From: a phage
Direction: 5' to 3' (one strand)
Length of the DNA stretch: 64,000 nt
Sequence record: OZ346228.1
Of this stretch, positions 57,145 to 62,897 are shown piece by piece. The stretch's first letter is position 1, and each line of letters starts with the position of its first letter. The position numbers were made by a program, and so were the translations under genes. Below the pieces are notes generated by a model. That model did no database searches. It was given only the letters and a program-made list of their open reading frames with translations, and was not told where the DNA came from.

Positions 57145-58076
57145 TGCATATAGTCCTCGTTGTGGAAATAGTAGTCCAGTATCTCACGACGCTCCTGCTC
57201 TAATAAGCAATTCCACACATCTTCTGTATAGTTGCTACGAATAAATTTTACCATACCGTAAAACTCTTCGTCAACACGTTTAAAGATATCATCATCCCAA
57301 ATCTTCCAAGCTTTACCCCTCATTACTGCCTTCCGTGCCAGATAGTATGGAGACTTGATCTTCAGCTGCAGATCATAAGGGTAGTAAGGCTTACGAATCA
57401 TATACCCTTCACCTCTTGTTTCTGCAGCTAATTCTTTTGCATAGCTGAACGGAATTTCACGCACAGTGTTAGGACGTTTTGCACCAAGGTATTTGGCAAT
57501 CCCATCTAAAGCTGCTTCTGGTAGCATTATTCCAGAATCATTATATCTGCAACCTATCAAATATGCGCCATGGTCTTCTTGAACAATATGCGGATCTGAA
57601 GGGTGACAAATTTCAAACATGAATGTCATGTTTTCATTGCCCATAACCTTCTTGATAAGATCTAAATTACCACATTGCTCTTGGATGGTTTCCTTTGCAA
57701 GGTTACAATATGGAGAATCAAGAGACCCGGTTGTTGAGAACAATAGGTCACCTTTATGAGATGATACCACACCAAGGAATCCGTTCTTTTTCTCTACCGC
57801 AGTCACAAGCTTATTGTCAGGCAGGTTGGTGGAGTTTTCTCCCAAGTTAAACACTTTTGTGAAGGGCCATGCCACAACATTTCCTTCATTACCTACAACA
57901 ATGCCTCGGCACTCCAGTAAACGAGGGGACAAATGCCATAAATTGTTGTAAAATACTTTTCTAGCATATTTATAGATCTTTAACCCGAGATCTGGGTAAT
58001 ACCTACTGGTTACAAGACCTTTGTCAACTAGGTCGTCTGCATTAAAATACTTCATTATATGTTCCTCATTTGTCAT
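57141..58076 (-). CDS. RNA ligase, T4 Rnl1-like
   Basis: LLECRGI, KVFNLGEN, motif I EKKNG, motif IV EGYMIRK, motif V LQLKIK colinear with T4 RNA ligase 1. Confidence 0.8.
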   Translation of the reverse strand: MTNEEHIMKYFNADDLVDKGLVTSRYYPDLGLKIYKYARKVFYNNLWHLSPRLLECRGIVVGNEGNVVAWPFTKVFNLGENSTNLPDNKLVTAVEKKNGFLGVVSSHKGDLLFSTTGSLDSPYCNLAKETIQEQCGNLDLIKKVMGNENMTFMFEICHPSDPHIVQEDHGAYLIGCRYNDSGIMLPEAALDGIAKYLGAKRPNTVREIPFSYAKELAAETRGEGYMIRKPYYPYDLQLKIKSPYYLARKAVMRGKAWKIWDDDIFKRVDEEFYGMVKFIRSNYTEDVWNCLLEQERREILDYYFHNEDYMQ

Positions 58077-58118
58077 TTTGTCAGTCTATCCTGCCACACA
58101 AATAACCTAGTGTCAACA

Positions 58119-58147
58119 CTTGAAATTAACAAAACAGTTAGGTATAC
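58119..58147 (+). promoter_or_regulatory. sigma70-type promoter in divergent intergenic region
   Basis: TTGAAA, 17 nt spacer, TATACT. Confidence 0.6.
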
Positions 58148-58176
58148 TACCGTTGAAATTAAAACGGAGGGTCGCT

Positions 58177-58587
58177 ATGTCTAAAATGCTATATATCGTG
58201 CGTGGTCTACCAGGGTCTGGCAAATCAACACTGGCAAATGAGCTATCTTTAGAGGGTCTGTATCCACATTTTGAGAACGACATGTTCTGGTATGACGATG
58301 ACGGCAATTACAACTGGGATGCAAGTAAAGTAACACTCGCAGCAAAATGGTGCAAAGATAACGTAGAAGATATGATGCGTATGGGATACGACCGTATCGT
58401 GGTAAGTAATACGTTTACAAAAGAAAAACATGTGCAGGAATATGTTGACATGGCAATCACTCACGGGTATAGTTATACCGTGATCGTGGTTGAAAACCGC
58501 CACGGTAATAAAAGCATTCATGATGTTCCAGACAAGGTTGTGGATCGTATGGAACGCCAGCTTAAAAACTGCATTAAACTTAAATGA
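58177..58587 (+). CDS. P-loop polynucleotide kinase-like protein (T4 Pnk kinase-domain-like)
   Basis: RBS ggaggg; Walker A GLPGSGKST; N-terminus parallels T4 Pnk MKKIILTIGCPGSGKSTWA. Confidence 0.6.
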   Translation: MSKMLYIVRGLPGSGKSTLANELSLEGLYPHFENDMFWYDDDGNYNWDASKVTLAAKWCKDNVEDMMRMGYDRIVVSNTFTKEKHVQEYVDMAITHGYSYTVIVVENRHGNKSIHDVPDKVVDRMERQLKNCIKLK

Positions 58588-58594
58588 GGAATGT

Positions 58595-59149
58595 ATGAAA
58601 TACTTTGTAACAAGCGACACACACTTTCTCCACCAGCGGGTCATGGAGTTTGATTCATGTCAAAAACACAGATCTCAGTATGATCACAATCTTGACAGTA
58701 TGAATGCAGGAATCATCGCCGAGTGGAACTCTGTTGTGTCACCTGCAGACACTGTGTTCCACTTGGGAGATATTGCGTGCACTAATGATAAGAATATCAA
58801 CAACTTACTTCCAGATATTCTAAATATGTTGAACGGACATATTATTCTTGTTCGTGGCAACCATGACACAAGGACGACTGTCAGAATTATGAAAGAGTTC
58901 GGTCATGAGGTTGTAGATTATTACGAGCTTCGCCACAACAAGAATTTGATCTGTATGAGCCATTACCAGTTTGCAAAGTGGAACAGAAAGCCTCACGGAT
59001 CAGTCCAACTGTTCGGTCATGCTCACGGAACCACACAACAGTTGTTTGGCAGGCAGCTTGATGTCGGTTGGGATGTGTGGGGGAGACTCTTACCATTAGA
59101 AGAGGCATACCGTATTGCAATGAGTTTTGATATTGACAGCAGGGAGTAA
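58595..59149 (+). CDS. calcineurin-like metallophosphoesterase
   Basis: SDTHF, GDIACTND and VRGNHD motifs; RBS gagga before ATG (MKYFVTSD...). Confidence 0.75.
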   Translation: MKYFVTSDTHFLHQRVMEFDSCQKHRSQYDHNLDSMNAGIIAEWNSVVSPADTVFHLGDIACTNDKNINNLLPDILNMLNGHIILVRGNHDTRTTVRIMKEFGHEVVDYYELRHNKNLICMSHYQFAKWNRKPHGSVQLFGHAHGTTQQLFGRQLDVGWDVWGRLLPLEEAYRIAMSFDIDSRE

Positions 59150-59196
59150 TCCCTGCTATTTTAAAGAAAATTGCCACACAAGGAGAATCAGGAGAT

Positions 59197-59547
59197 ATGA
59201 AAGATGGGGATAAGCTGCTATATCTTAAAGTCCCCCTTGAAATACTATCTATGTCAAAAGTTTTGAATGACACAACTGGGGAGGTTGTTGTTCTTGACTT
59301 GTATGACAAGATCGTATACTGCTACCTGCACAACTGGTATAAGCTTGGAGGAAATTCACGCTTCACACCAAGCACAAGGAAAATTGCAGCAGATGTTGGG
59401 ATAAAGAAAACAAAAGCAGCAGCGTGCGTTAAAACTTTAGAATGTGCAGGAGTGGTTGAAACATCCACACAAGGGAGAGGTAAAAGATGCACATTTTCCA
59501 AAGTTTTGCCACCAGAAGAAGTTATTCGGATGTCAACAACTGGTTAG
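59197..59547 (+). CDS. putative DNA-binding regulator (winged-helix-like), tentative
   Basis: HTH-like segment STRKIAADVGIKKTKAAACVKTLECAGVV; followed by palindromic operator array. Confidence 0.4.
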   Translation: MKDGDKLLYLKVPLEILSMSKVLNDTTGEVVVLDLYDKIVYCYLHNWYKLGGNSRFTPSTRKIAADVGIKKTKAAACVKTLECAGVVETSTQGRGKRCTFSKVLPPEEVIRMSTTG

Positions 59548-59619
59548 ACCAGTAAAAACTTAAATATCTGTACTATAAGGATTCGTATGTTTTATGTTCG
59601 CCATGGAACGGATACTATT

Positions 59620-59705
59620 AACTGTCCGTGATACGGACACTACTGTCCGTCACGCGGACACATCTGCCCGTAATACGGACACTAACTGTCCGTGATACGG
59701 ACACA
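59620..59705. promoter_or_regulatory. four tandem palindromic operator-like sites
   Basis: GTCCGTgatACGGAC (59624-59638), GTCCGTcacgCGGAC, GCCCGTaatACGGAC, GTCCGTgatACGGAC (59688-59702), centre-to-centre about 21 bp. Confidence 0.6.
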
Positions 59706-59825
59706 TAAAGAATATAACTAAAATAACTAAATAATAAAAAATAAAAGATCTAGTACTTATGGTACTAAGTACATATACTTAACTTATGTAGAATATACTA
59801 GATCCTAAGTACCATGTTTTAAATT

Positions 59826-60110
59826 TATTACTTACTATGGGCAGTGTCGGCCCTTCATTGGCACTCGCCTACGAGGGGGCGAGATGCCGGGCCTCCTTGG
59901 CGCACACAATAACAGAAGTTCATACATGCAGGTCTGTTAACATGTGTGGGAGCGAAGCGATAGCGCAGGCCAAAGGCCGAGCACTGATGTGGACCACCGA
60001 CGAAAGCTTGCCAGCGCCGTAAGGAGTCGGTTGAGAGTCTCCCGCGCGAGCTTGGATGAAGTTTATGTGTGGAAACTGACAAGAAGGCCCCTAAATCGCT
60101 CCACAGCTAT
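59826..60110. other. GC-rich non-coding island, candidate structured RNA
   Basis: Abrupt rise in GC relative to flanking AT-rich DNA; hairpins such as cgcc-tacgaggg-ggcg; no convincing ORF or RBS. Confidence 0.35.
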
Positions 60111-60208
60111 ATAAACTATACCAGGTAATGCAATCGCACCAGTTTGATAGAAAAGCTCGTTACAAAGCGATACAGTGAGTTTTTCTATAACTTGAAGAGG
60201 AGGCAGCT

Positions 60209-60787
60209 ATGGGTTCACGCAAAGATGACCGTGAAAAGATTGCAAAACGTTATCAGAATGAAGAACAGATGGAGAAAACTTTCAAGTGGAAGCCAGGTTT
60301 CCAGCGTAATCATTCTAACGCTCGTGATCGTAAGCATCCGGATAAGTGGCTAACACCGCCAAATGATGGCATGCAGGTTGGGGATGAGAAGGAGATGTCG
60401 CCTGGAAAAGATGGCAACTACATTCGCACTAAGGACGCTGGTCCAAAGGATGACAGCTATCTTGTAGATAAGGTTCTTGATGGTATCAATGTAGATGTTG
60501 ACACTGCACGAAACCTTTTTCTTGGGTGGTATCGCACAGGTTTTTTCGACATCAAGGCTATTCGTCGTGTTTGTGATATTAAAAAGTCTGCATATGATGA
60601 CGACTCGTTACATCGCACCCTGAGACAATATTCAGAAAGATATGGTCATCCGGTTATCACTCTTGACGATGTTAACGAAGTGATGTATCATGCAGAGGTT
60701 GTTGCAGGAAGATTCGGTGATGCATATCTTGATATCCTTTCTGCAAAGGATGAGGTAATGTTAAATAAGATTTACTATGAACGCTGA
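60209..60787 (+). CDS. hypothetical protein
   Basis: RBS aagaggagg; 192 aa. Confidence 0.6.
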   Translation: MGSRKDDREKIAKRYQNEEQMEKTFKWKPGFQRNHSNARDRKHPDKWLTPPNDGMQVGDEKEMSPGKDGNYIRTKDAGPKDDSYLVDKVLDGINVDVDTARNLFLGWYRTGFFDIKAIRRVCDIKKSAYDDDSLHRTLRQYSERYGHPVITLDDVNEVMYHAEVVAGRFGDAYLDILSAKDEVMLNKIYYER

Positions 60788-60797
60788 GGAGCGCTTA

Positions 60798-60986
60798 ATG
60801 AACAACCCGGTAGCAAAGAACTGTAATAAGTTCAACAAGTCTGCAATTCACACTGACAGGAAAAAGAGCTGGTCTCCTGACATTGACGAGGAGCTTGAGA
60901 GTTACTTTGAAGACCTGGTCACTAATGCAGATGAGGTTGCGATTAAAGAATACGCAGACAGGAAGGATAAGGCCGGAATCTGTTGA
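60798..60986 (+). CDS. hypothetical protein
   Basis: RBS gaggag before ATG (MNNPVAK...). Confidence 0.45.
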   Translation: MNNPVAKNCNKFNKSAIHTDRKKSWSPDIDEELESYFEDLVTNADEVAIKEYADRKDKAGIC

Positions 60987-62084: not shown

Positions 62085-62159
62085 GCCCTGTTAGCTTAGT
62101 GGATAAAGCAGCGGCCTTCTAAGCCGTTGACACTGGTTCGAGTCCAGTACGGGGTGCCA
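62085..62159 (+). tRNA. tRNA-Arg (anticodon TCT)
   Basis: Manual fold: D stem GCTT/AAGC, anticodon loop CTTCTAA, T loop TTCGAGT, 3' CCA encoded; acceptor stem has two G-U pairs. Confidence 0.7.
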
Positions 62160-62163
62160 AATT

Positions 62164-62250
62164 GGGGAGTTATCCCGTAGAGGTAGCGGTGTAGACTGTA
62201 AATCTATTGTCATTGCGACTCGGGTGGTTCGACTCCACCACTCCCCACCA
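62164..62250 (+). tRNA. tRNA-Tyr (anticodon GTA), long variable arm
   Basis: Acceptor GGGGAGT/ACTCCCC, anticodon loop CTGTAAA, T loop TTCGACT, CCA encoded. Confidence 0.8.
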
Positions 62251-62364
62251 AATTTATATTTTTAGATGCATAAATAATACAGATAATGGCATTGATATTT
62301 ATCGTCGTTTATACTAGTCACTAACTGCTCGAAAATCAGTGTCATTATCAGTATTATTTATAAA

Positions 62365-62455
62365 GGAGGGTAGGGAGCAATGGTGCTCAATCGGTCTTGA
62401 AAACCGTCCCGTTGAGGATGACTCGATGATGGTTCGATTCCATTACTCTCCGCCA
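62365..62455 (+). tRNA. tRNA-Ser (anticodon TGA), long variable arm
   Basis: Acceptor GGAGGGT/ACTCTCC, anticodon loop CTTGAAA, T loop TTCGATT, CCA encoded. Confidence 0.7.
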
Positions 62456-62553
62456 CATTGTTGACCTTGTAATTAAGCGAAAGTCGGAAGCAGAACCGGA
62501 TTATCAAATGTTACAGTCGTCATCGCCGACTAGCAACATGGTCAACATACTGA

Positions 62554-62652
62554 GCTAGGTAAGCCCTTTGGCAAGGGCGAGGATTTTTAATCCTGAAAAT
62601 AGACGAGGTAGTCGTTGAATACATAGGTGGTTCGATTCCATCACCTAGCACC
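62554..62652 (+). tRNA. atypical tRNA-like gene; anticodon loop TTTTTAA (Lys-TTT-like), about 28 nt extra between anticodon and T arms; may be a pseudo-tRNA
   Basis: Acceptor GCTAGGT/ACCTAGC, D arm GCCC-TTTGGCAA-GGGC, T loop TTCGATT; variable region far longer than class I; CCA not fully encoded. Confidence 0.35.
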
Positions 62653-62657
62653 TTTTT

Positions 62658-62733
62658 GCTGATGTAGCACAATCGGTAGTGCAATTGATTTGTAATCAAT
62701 AGGTTGTAGGTTCAAGTCCTGCCATCAGCACCA
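62658..62733 (+). tRNA. tRNA-Thr (anticodon TGT)
   Basis: Acceptor GCTGATG/CATCAGC, anticodon stem-loop ATTGA-TTTGTAA-TCAAT, T loop TTCAAGT, CCA encoded. Confidence 0.8.
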
Positions 62734-62734
62734 A

Positions 62735-62809
62735 GGCCCTGTAGCTGGAAGGTTCAAGCAAGCGACTCATAATCGCCAGACGGTGGTTCAATTCCACCCA
62801 GGGCCACCA
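62735..62809 (+). tRNA. tRNA-Met/Ile2-type (anticodon CAT)
   Basis: Acceptor GGCCCTG/CAGGGCC, anticodon loop CTCATAA, T loop TTCAATT, CCA encoded. Confidence 0.8.
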
Positions 62810-62820
62810 AATAGTAAATA

Positions 62821-62897
62821 CTCCGCGTAGCTCAGCTTGGTAGAGCGCCTGATTTGGGATCAGGAGGTCGAGTGTTCGAATCACTCCGTGGAGACCA
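62821..62897 (+). tRNA. tRNA-Pro (anticodon TGG)
   Basis: C1-G72 acceptor, D stem GCTC/GAGC, anticodon stem-loop CCTGA-TTTGGGA-TCAGG, T loop TTCGAAT, CCA encoded. Confidence 0.8.

Follow-up and report, generated by a model that had tools for sequence, protein, structure and literature searches.

The stretch of phage DNA considered here (sequence record OZ346228.1; its 64,000 nucleotides are called the window below) carries at 59133-60110 a compact locus in which a small gene for a 116-aa winged-helix protein is followed by four evenly spaced semi-palindromic repeats, an AT-rich tract and a GC-rich non-coding element (Table 1), and which we regard as probably the vegetative replication origin module, of the iteron type, of rV5-like phages. 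Megablast of 59100-60250 identifies the source as a Vequintavirus, an rV5-like myovirus of ~137 kb (119 phage records at 90-100% identity, all Vequintavirus). Within these records the small open reading frame (ORF) appears as 'putative transcriptional regulator', 'DNA-binding protein' or, in RefSeq, 'replication initiation protein', the repeats are entered only as an unnamed 'repeat_region', and none of the matching records annotates an origin. Skew analysis in the rV5 genome paper, carried out to define the origin, revealed only shifts tied to the orientation of transcription and left the origin undefined (PMC3606486). An earlier note on this DNA had read the locus as an autoregulatory or switch region controlling rightward transcription. 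For the genome-wide scans below, the window was completed with the remainder of the 99.9%-identical phage isim (~138 kb in total), and conservation was assessed in an alignment of 12 genomes differing by up to 9%.

Table 1. Coordinates, within the window, of the features of the locus and of its first downstream gene.
Feature	Position	Strand	Remarks
Sigma-70-like promoter	59133..59162	+	TTGACA-18-TATTTT with TG; drives the winged-helix gene; 'P76' in the rV5 record
116-aa winged-helix protein gene	59197..59547	+	rV5 ORF79/gp075; homologous to the N-terminal, origin-binding domain of RepA-type initiators (Pfam DUF6945 / HTH_36); no C-terminal domain
Spacer, stop codon to repeats	59548..59618		First 47 bp conserved; last ~25 bp (59595-59618) hypervariable
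Iteron array, four semi-palindromic copies	59619..59704	n/a	Consensus TGYCCGY-NAN-RCGGACA
Dyad 1	59623-59639		TGTCCGTGATACGGACA; perfect
Dyad 2	59644-59660		TGTCCGTCACGCGGACA; one arm mismatch
Dyad 3	59665-59681		TGCCCGTAATACGGACA; one arm mismatch
Dyad 4	59687-59703		TGTCCGTGATACGGACA; perfect
AT-rich tract, proposed DNA-unwinding element	59705..59836	n/a	Two GATC sites and internal dyads
Exact E. coli oriC 13-mer consensus	59738..59750	-	GATCTnTTnTTTT (GATCTTTTATTTT); sole exact match in the 64-kb window
Second oriC-type 13-mer copy	59792-59804	-	2 mismatches
Perfect 9-nt inverted repeat	59747-59755 and 59796-59804		GATCTAGTA / TACTAGATC; encloses GTACTTA/TAAGTAC dyads
GC-rich structured non-coding element	59837..60110	+	GC 50-67% in a 42% genome
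5′ hairpin of the GC-rich element	59849-59893
Conserved core of the GC-rich element	~59941-60050		Includes helix 59996-60001 / 60026-60031
192-aa protein gene (ORF192)	60209..60787	+	Function unassigned; first gene downstream; genus-specific

The repeat array and the AT-rich tract

That four palindromic copies recur at an even spacing of ~21 bp, as the earlier note had stated, holds. Tandem Repeats Finder delimits 4.0 copies with a period of 21 (score 110, 59621-59704), and a repeat search aligned four 22-nt repeat units with start-to-start spacings of 21, 21 and 22 bp. The dyads themselves are 17 bp each, TGTCCGT-N3-ACGGACA, and their centres are 21, 21 and 22 bp apart, two helical turns; the GTCCGT/ACGGAC arms are as previously described, and the spacer between them, formerly given as three or four nucleotides, is N3 in all four copies. 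When up to two mismatches are allowed, the pattern occurs five times in the window against 0.13 expected, a count that 0 of 100 shuffles reach. The search for the site elsewhere in the genome, which the note had suggested, was run and found no other copy with one mismatch or fewer across the ~138 kb; the dyads, being unique in the genome, are therefore not a regulon operator. Lying 75 bp 3′ of the stop codon of the 116-aa gene and directly before the AT-rich tract, the array provides at least three direct repeats of a candidate initiator site in helical phase, as an iteron-type (theta) origin does.

The DNA after the palindromes is AT-rich as claimed, with a GC content of 17-32% over 59700-59849. 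In a nearest-neighbour stability scan of the genome, 59705-59835 is the least stable stretch whether 60, 100 or 130 bp are considered, the tract standing at -134.5 kcal/mol compared with a genome mean of -173.5 (standard deviation 6.6) and a runner-up at -147.5. An AT-rich candidate unwinding element adjacent to the repeats, a further attribute of iteron-type origins, is present in this form. As for the additional dyads that had been reported in it, agatctagta/tactagatc is borne out as a perfect 9-nt inverted repeat, and agtactta/taagtact pairs at only 7 of 8 positions (the DNA reads taagtaca and taagtacc). We also observed an 18-nt inverted repeat, 83% complementary (59557-59574 / 59768-59785, with 193 nt between the arms), which encloses the iteron array and the first half of the AT tract.

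A protein related to initiator origin-binding domains

The small ORF upstream of the array, which had been credited with a helix-turn-helix-like segment, is a real gene, because its substitutions are biased by codon position (9, 11 and 35 variable sites at the three positions among the 12 genomes), and the segment is confirmed as a winged helix-turn-helix. Its product matches the Pfam families DUF6945 (E 3.8e-6) and HTH_36 (E 2.3e-5), the former being matched at E < 1e-3 by 15 of 15 family members, and PHROG 12838, 'replication initiation protein', at E 5e-80, with weaker matches to the initiator families 8102, 428 and 270. The best solved relative by sequence is 4RO3 (E 3e-6 from the single sequence); when searched with a family profile built without it, 4RO3 is recovered at E 9.5e-11, and the next PDB match and generic regulators follow from 0.008. 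This structure is the N-terminal domain of RepA of the Vibrio cholerae satellite PLE (PMC7145576), a protein that binds semi-palindromic iterons and drives PLE replication (PMC7145576, PMC8263062) and that is akin to the RepA_N initiators known from staphylococcal plasmids (PMC7145576). DUF6945 is matched by the aligned segment of 4RO3 itself at E 2e-22.

AlphaFold run on five near-identical sequences alone reached a predicted local distance difference test score (pLDDT) of 45, and a usable model needed the addition of distant homologues to the alignment; with these included, a winged helix-turn-helix was predicted at pLDDT 75 and a predicted template modelling score (pTM) of 0.74. The predicted fold matches initiator N-terminal domains across 105 of the 116 residues and has the attributes of the winged-helix origin-binding domain found at the N terminus of RepA_N/DnaD-N type proteins. 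The 116-aa protein is a homologue of the origin-binding domain, and of that domain alone, and it belongs to the DUF6945-like group of such domains. Because the C-terminal domain is absent and the Pfam RepA_N model is unmatched, we do not file it as a full member of the RepA_N initiator family.

By tblastn against GenBank phages, the protein occurs in the 119 Vequintavirus records only. Word-indexed, exhaustive and profile protein searches brought in only a small family of proteins from metagenomic phages, 182-217 aa long, and a related-locus search on viral contigs found nothing. In the contigs of these metagenomic relatives (L011-L017), the gene lies at a divergent intergenic region with a recurring CCTnGTAGGTACA-like motif and no clean array (L012 5230-5530, L017 3380-3660, L014 3050-3320); at one such locus the motif stands beside primase-helicase and DNA polymerase A genes, and it could represent iterons or phage promoters of these relatives. 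We note in addition that several of the metagenomic proteins (P0009, P0011, P0014, P0017 and P0019; 194-217 aa) have a C-terminal extension with an acidic tail ending ...D(E/A)PF or ...EPF. Such tails are reminiscent of the C-terminal tip of single-stranded DNA-binding protein (SSB); the Rep-like protein of the satellite-like plasmids described below ends ...DSAIPY, and the 116-aa protein is without a tail of this kind. The acidic tails of the metagenomic relatives and that of the satellite Rep could be replisome-recruiting.

Conservation, cassette exchange and the GC-rich element

Nucleotide diversity (π) is 0.030 in the repeats and 0.034 in the AT tract compared with 0.060-0.077 in the four surrounding genes, and it rises to 0.25 in the 40 bp left of the repeats; the array has suffered no insertions or deletions among the 12 genomes. 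Variation in the dyads is confined to position 3 (T/C), position 7 (T/C), the 3-bp centre and position 11 (A/G), so that TG.CCG and CGGACA are invariant. The whole non-coding stretch is thus under purifying selection. Several of the arm changes leave uncompensated mismatches, which argues against a requirement for hairpin formation. The intergenic promoter stretch is likewise highly conserved (π 0.023). By contrast with the conserved repeats immediately to its right, a stretch of 25-40 bp (59580-59619, π 0.25) is hypervariable, and it may be either an unconstrained spacer or a recombination joint of the cassette.

A further comparison comes from a metagenomic relative of 137 kb (IMGVR_UViG_3300010279_000001; L029 and L036, one contig), in which everything between conserved flanks has been replaced (L029 1950-2800). 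On the left the end of the phosphoesterase gene and the promoter are kept, and on the right the GC-rich element and ORF192. The replacement ORF encodes a 143-aa homologue of 24% identity (hhalign probability 97%, E 7e-11), for which GenBank phages hold no match, and it is followed immediately by different semi-palindromic repeats of the ATCTGATGCAAATATGTATC type with an AAATAT centre, three of them direct copies and one inverted, and after these by an A-rich tract that also differs. A cognate gene thus lies beside the repeats and co-varies with them, as expected of an iteron origin. More strongly than any other observation, the joint change of protein and repeats indicates that the repeats beside the gene are what the protein recognises and that the AT tract belongs with both in one functional unit; among PLEs, the RepA_N domain and the origin are likewise swapped together (PMC8263062). 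The idea that the small ORF encodes a regulator of the palindromes survives in part: its homology to iteron-binding domains and the joint replacement speak for a dyad-recognising DNA-binding protein with the dyads as its likely sites, and the switch role assigned to it is not the one favoured by the evidence, as set out below.

The GC-rich element shows no codon-position bias among the 12 genomes in any frame or ORF. Small ORFs annotated within it in some records (59944-60114, rV5 'ORF 78', rv5_gp074, with 9/8/12 variable sites by codon position, and 59837-60022, with 13/14/14) share this lack of bias and are probably not genes. At gathering thresholds Rfam returns tRNAs alone, and a permissive scan of 59500-60300 gave a chance-level match to rli43 (22.5 bits versus a gathering threshold of 100). 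Since the RNA fold z-scores of the element, -1.8 and -1.6, are unimpressive by themselves, the case for structure rests on compensatory changes. By blastn, parts of the element recur at 84-89% identity in E. coli plasmids, all circular, most of them 13.2-13.7 kb long and one 39.6 kb; the element is also present in metagenomic contigs of 13-15 kb (L030, L034). In the core helix, three of the six pairs are changed on both sides between phage and plasmid copies (CCGAC/GUCGG versus CUGCC/GGCAG), and further compensatory changes are found in the 5′ hairpin and in L029, where GGGAG/CUCCC becomes GGAAG/CUUCC. From this pattern of substitution we conclude that the element functions as a single strand that folds, be it RNA or DNA.

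The plasmids that carry the element (L027, i.e. NZ_CP020521.1 of 13,689 bp; NZ_CP035869.1; CP148565.1; NZ_CP178698.1; and the 39.6-kb NZ_CP043822.1 with three copies of it) have genes for a major capsid protein, a tape measure protein and two tail/neck proteins, of which three products are 26-50% identical to rV5-like phage proteins, and no annotated terminase or integrase. Their non-coding region is ordered as a semi-palindromic array of their own (CGGTAAATATTTCCG, 23-bp period), AT-rich palindromic repeats and the shared GC-rich element, after which comes a gene whose product, of 288-303 aa, is a distant relative of the phage protein with matches to many 'replication initiation' PHROGs; the phage repeats were not found in these plasmids. 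The plasmids maintain themselves, so this non-coding region very probably holds their origin. By analogy, their parallel layout supports the reading of the phage locus as an origin, and it suggests that what helper and satellite have in common is the GC-rich element. On their gene content the 13-kb plasmids look like an undescribed plasmid-borne satellite of rV5-like phages; we found no literature on them. For the element itself, roles as a signal for priming or loading, as a packaging signal or as a regulatory RNA are all conceivable.

A candidate origin, its rivals and its parallels

The candidate origin reading of 59133-60110, which we hold to be the probable one, draws on the homology to initiator domains, the phased iterons adjoining the genome's minimum of duplex stability with its 13-mer, the uniqueness of the dyads, the signs of selection, the cassette swap and the parallel plasmids. 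As a working mechanism, we suppose that the protein would occupy the four iterons as dimers, all on one face of the helix, and thereby bend the DNA, with the bending by bound dimers of the RepA_N N-terminal domains of staphylococcal plasmids as the model. The resulting stress might then open the adjoining AT tract at its 13-mer. Because the protein is without a replisome-recruiting C-terminal domain, we propose that the phage primase-helicase and polymerase, whose genes are located elsewhere in the genome, enter the bubble directly. Their entry might be aided by read-through transcription from the upstream promoter, from which no terminator separates the tract, and perhaps also by the GC-rich element, which, conserved and structured, might serve as a signal for priming or loading.

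Several points weigh against this reading. The main caveat is the missing C-terminal domain: the 116-aa protein stops just past the wing, without the part that would recruit replisome or primase, and no substitute for it was found, ORF192 being unrelated, whereas the distant metagenomic relatives do carry a C-terminal extension. Replication of pSK41 cannot do without the C-terminal domain, which contacts DnaG (PMC5703833), and the corresponding domain in PLE is believed to bring in the replisome. Proteins of this size with a winged helix often act as repressors, the DUF6945 score of 27.4 bits is under the cut-off of 28, and Pfam RepA_N (PF06970) is absent among the matches at E <= 1. Within 59500-60210 there is neither a DnaA box (0 mismatches) nor an integration host factor (IHF) consensus; such host-factor sites are typical of host-dependent plasmid origins and not universal among phage origins. 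With homologues confined to one genus and a small metagenomic family, the comparative depth is limited. Finally, the sign change of the GC skew at ~58 kb coincides with the divergent gene orientation and merely follows it; because it tracks gene orientation (PMC3606486), we did not count the skew as origin evidence.

The closest competitor is a repressor-operator switch, in which the 116-aa protein on the four dyads would control transcription. It might form a roadblock that stops read-through from its own promoter before the long rightward unit, with its tRNA, lysis, terminase and structural genes, or it might act on a weak promoter in the AT tract. This would suit a protein that consists of a DNA-binding domain only. 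The locus heads a rightward unit containing late genes (PMC3606486), and a roadblock would have a target since no terminator stands between the ORF and the downstream genes, no intrinsic terminator having been found in 58000-60900. One annotation pipeline moreover marks an 8-bp 'promoter' at ~59726-59733. Operators would be expected to adjoin a promoter, however, and we found no sigma-70-like promoter within 59548-60200; the rV5 record annotates promoters only upstream of the ORF and ~1.4 kb downstream of it, and none by the repeats. The nearest dyad is 460 bp downstream of the gene's own promoter, at which there is no copy, so classical autoregulation is not possible. In addition, the full-length structural and sequence relatives are initiator domains and not repressors, and a switch would leave unexplained why the array abuts the least stable duplex of the genome with its oriC-type 13-mer and why self-replicating plasmids have a parallel layout. 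On these grounds we regard the autoregulatory or switch role in rightward transcription put forward in the earlier note as rather unlikely; a regulatory side-role of the array, for example as a roadblock to read-through, may exist.

The same parts could be imagined as a packaging-initiation region, with the winged-helix protein as small terminase or pac-recognition protein, the repeats as pac site and the GC-rich element copied by the satellites for packaging. Vequintaviruses are circularly permuted headful packagers (PMC3606486, PMC8407724, PMC13211470), published PhageTerm analyses giving this packaging type only, and their genomes have no annotated small terminase; the GC-rich element is the only sizeable non-coding DNA common to the phage and the terminase-less 13-kb plasmids. 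The terL gene lies downstream on the same strand, but at a distance of ~4 kb the winged-helix gene is not adjacent to it. The fold of the protein follows initiator N-terminal domains over 105 of its 116 residues with no small terminase among the matches listed, the repeats are not the shared signal, as the plasmids have their own repeats and their own Rep-like protein, and the GC-rich element, judging by its compensatory changes, is more likely a single-stranded structure than a recognition site in duplex DNA; we thus consider this explanation improbable. Very improbable in our estimate is an element acting at the RNA level, where the four dyads would form four hairpins of 6-7 bp in the 3′ untranslated region of the ORF mRNA and serve as stabilisers, processing sites or an attenuator. 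The array would be transcribed if the upstream promoter is active, there being no terminator before it, and in one natural variant the change of GTCCGT to GTCCGC within copy 2 gives a C-G pair where there had been U-G. Yet other variants leave uncompensated C-A mismatches (position 3 T/C in copies 2 and 3, and position 7 in copy 4 of L020), no U-tract follows any of the hairpins, the strict spacing of two helical turns has no obvious RNA meaning, and the co-replacement of a DNA-binding protein with the repeats would go unexplained.

An extension of the origin reading, which we offer as a possibility on the doubtful side, is a composite origin. An exchangeable cassette of DNA-binding-only initiator, iterons and unwinding tract would be joined to the ~270-nt element as the true entry or priming site of the primase-helicase, or as a packaging signal, and the undescribed 13-kb satellites, with a Rep-iteron cassette of their own, would copy the element to pirate the helper. 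If true, a composite origin would explain how an initiator without a recruiting domain functions and what helper and satellite share.

Among known systems, PLE RepA (4RO3; PMC7145576, PMC8263062) is the closest relative of the 116-aa protein in both sequence and structure and falls in the same Pfam family, DUF6945. The PLE origin, like the phage locus, consists of a short semi-palindromic iteron array in non-coding DNA, and its DNA-binding domain and cognate iterons are swapped together between related elements, as between the window and L029. PLE RepA, however, has a C-terminal domain where the phage protein has none, it acts on three iterons of ~30 bp instead of four 17-bp dyads with a 21-22-bp period, and PLE is a satellite dependent on the ICP1 replisome, whereas the phage module sits in the lytic phage itself. 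The staphylococcal RepA_N initiators (pSK41, pTZ2162; 4PQL, 4PT7, 5KBJ, 4PTA; PMC5703833) have a winged-helix N-terminal domain of ~120 aa with the same fold (Foldseek ranks 3-8), which oligomerises and bends DNA, and in pSK41 four Rep boxes with internal dyads directly follow the part coding for this domain, comparable to the phage gene immediately upstream of its repeats (PMC5703833). The staphylococcal origin, however, lies inside the rep gene, which continues into the essential DnaG-binding C-terminal domain, whereas the phage gene ends 75 bp short of its repeats. A/T tracts form the centres of the Rep boxes, and the phage dyads, with arms TGYCCGY/RCGGACA, have a centre of only 3 bp (N-A-N), the swapped repeats of L029 one of AAATAT. 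In pPR9-type hybrid initiators, an HTH_36 (pfam13730) N-terminal domain of phage origin forms with its origin an exchangeable specificity module, as in the phage, but is fused to a pSK41-type C-terminal domain, unlike the phage protein (PMC5703833).

By analogy, then, the locus appears to resemble PLE RepA/ori and pSK41 Rep/Rep-box in working, and ori-lambda and the iteron plasmid origins in layout. In ori-lambda, four dyad iterons bound by dimers of the N-terminal domain of O are followed by an AT-rich melting region; this origin is activated by transcription and lies inside gene O, the C-terminal domain of O recruits P-DnaB, and from one lambdoid phage to another the iterons vary together with the N-terminal domain of O. 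At the phage locus the repeats come after the stop codon and not within the initiator gene, so it is not an O-type origin in this sense; Phage_rep_O is absent among the Pfam matches, and weak O-like PHROG matches are seen for distant relatives only. The oriV regions of RK2 and RSF1010 are ordered as iterons, an AT-rich unwinding region with a GATCTnTTnTTTT-type 13-mer and a GC-rich segment, and in RSF1010 hairpin priming signals for the plasmid's own primase lie beyond the AT region. The phage locus shares this order of parts but lacks DnaA boxes, its initiator is not Rep_3/TrfA-like, and its GC-rich element, of ~270 nt, belongs to no Rfam family and has a hypothetical priming role. Stx-phage variants of the lambda-type O/ori system (PMC7466680) and iteron plasmid origins (PMC4980987; Rajewska et al. 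2012 as cited in PMC7145576) have been treated elsewhere.

A few observations concern the neighbourhood and the records. ORF192 has no Pfam or PDB match, belongs to PHROG 12226 (unknown function) and is found by tblastn in Vequintavirus only; as a candidate for the missing initiator C-terminal domain it was rejected, with an hhalign probability of 0.1% versus the initiator family. Further downstream lies a cluster of six tRNAs (62085-62894), two of which are near the Rfam threshold (35.5 and 29.9 bits) and which are annotated differently between phage records (tRNA-OTHER, Lys, Ser). Eighteen GenBank records of the MG0656xx series (e.g. MG065635.1, MG065662.1), bear the name 'Campylobacter phage' and give C. 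jejuni as host, but over this locus they share 97-99.5% identity with rV5-like phages of E. coli, which suggests that they are mislabelled or contaminating phages. CP057073.1 in PLSDB (137,565 bp), filed as an E. coli plasmid, has the length of an rV5-like genome and matches the GC-rich query (59837-60205) over its full extent at 98%; the entry is probably a phage genome that was submitted as a plasmid.

What was already known is the label 'replication initiation protein', derived by homology, that the gene bears in RefSeq and PHROGs; our literature search found no description of the origin, of the domain-only protein, of the cassette swap or of the structured element shared with satellite-like plasmids. 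Phages of the rV5 type are in wide use, in E. coli O157 typing, in biocontrol and in therapy collections, and the locus gives them a precise candidate origin with a defined protein, four sites and an unwinding tract. If confirmed, it would be an iteron origin served by an initiator pared down to its DNA-binding domain, raising the question of how the replisome is recruited, and it would offer practical handles in the form of a phage-dependent replicon for engineering and a target at which to block replication. In addition, the structured element, which the phage has in common with small E. coli plasmids carrying genes for capsid and tail proteins, points to an unrecognised helper-satellite pair.

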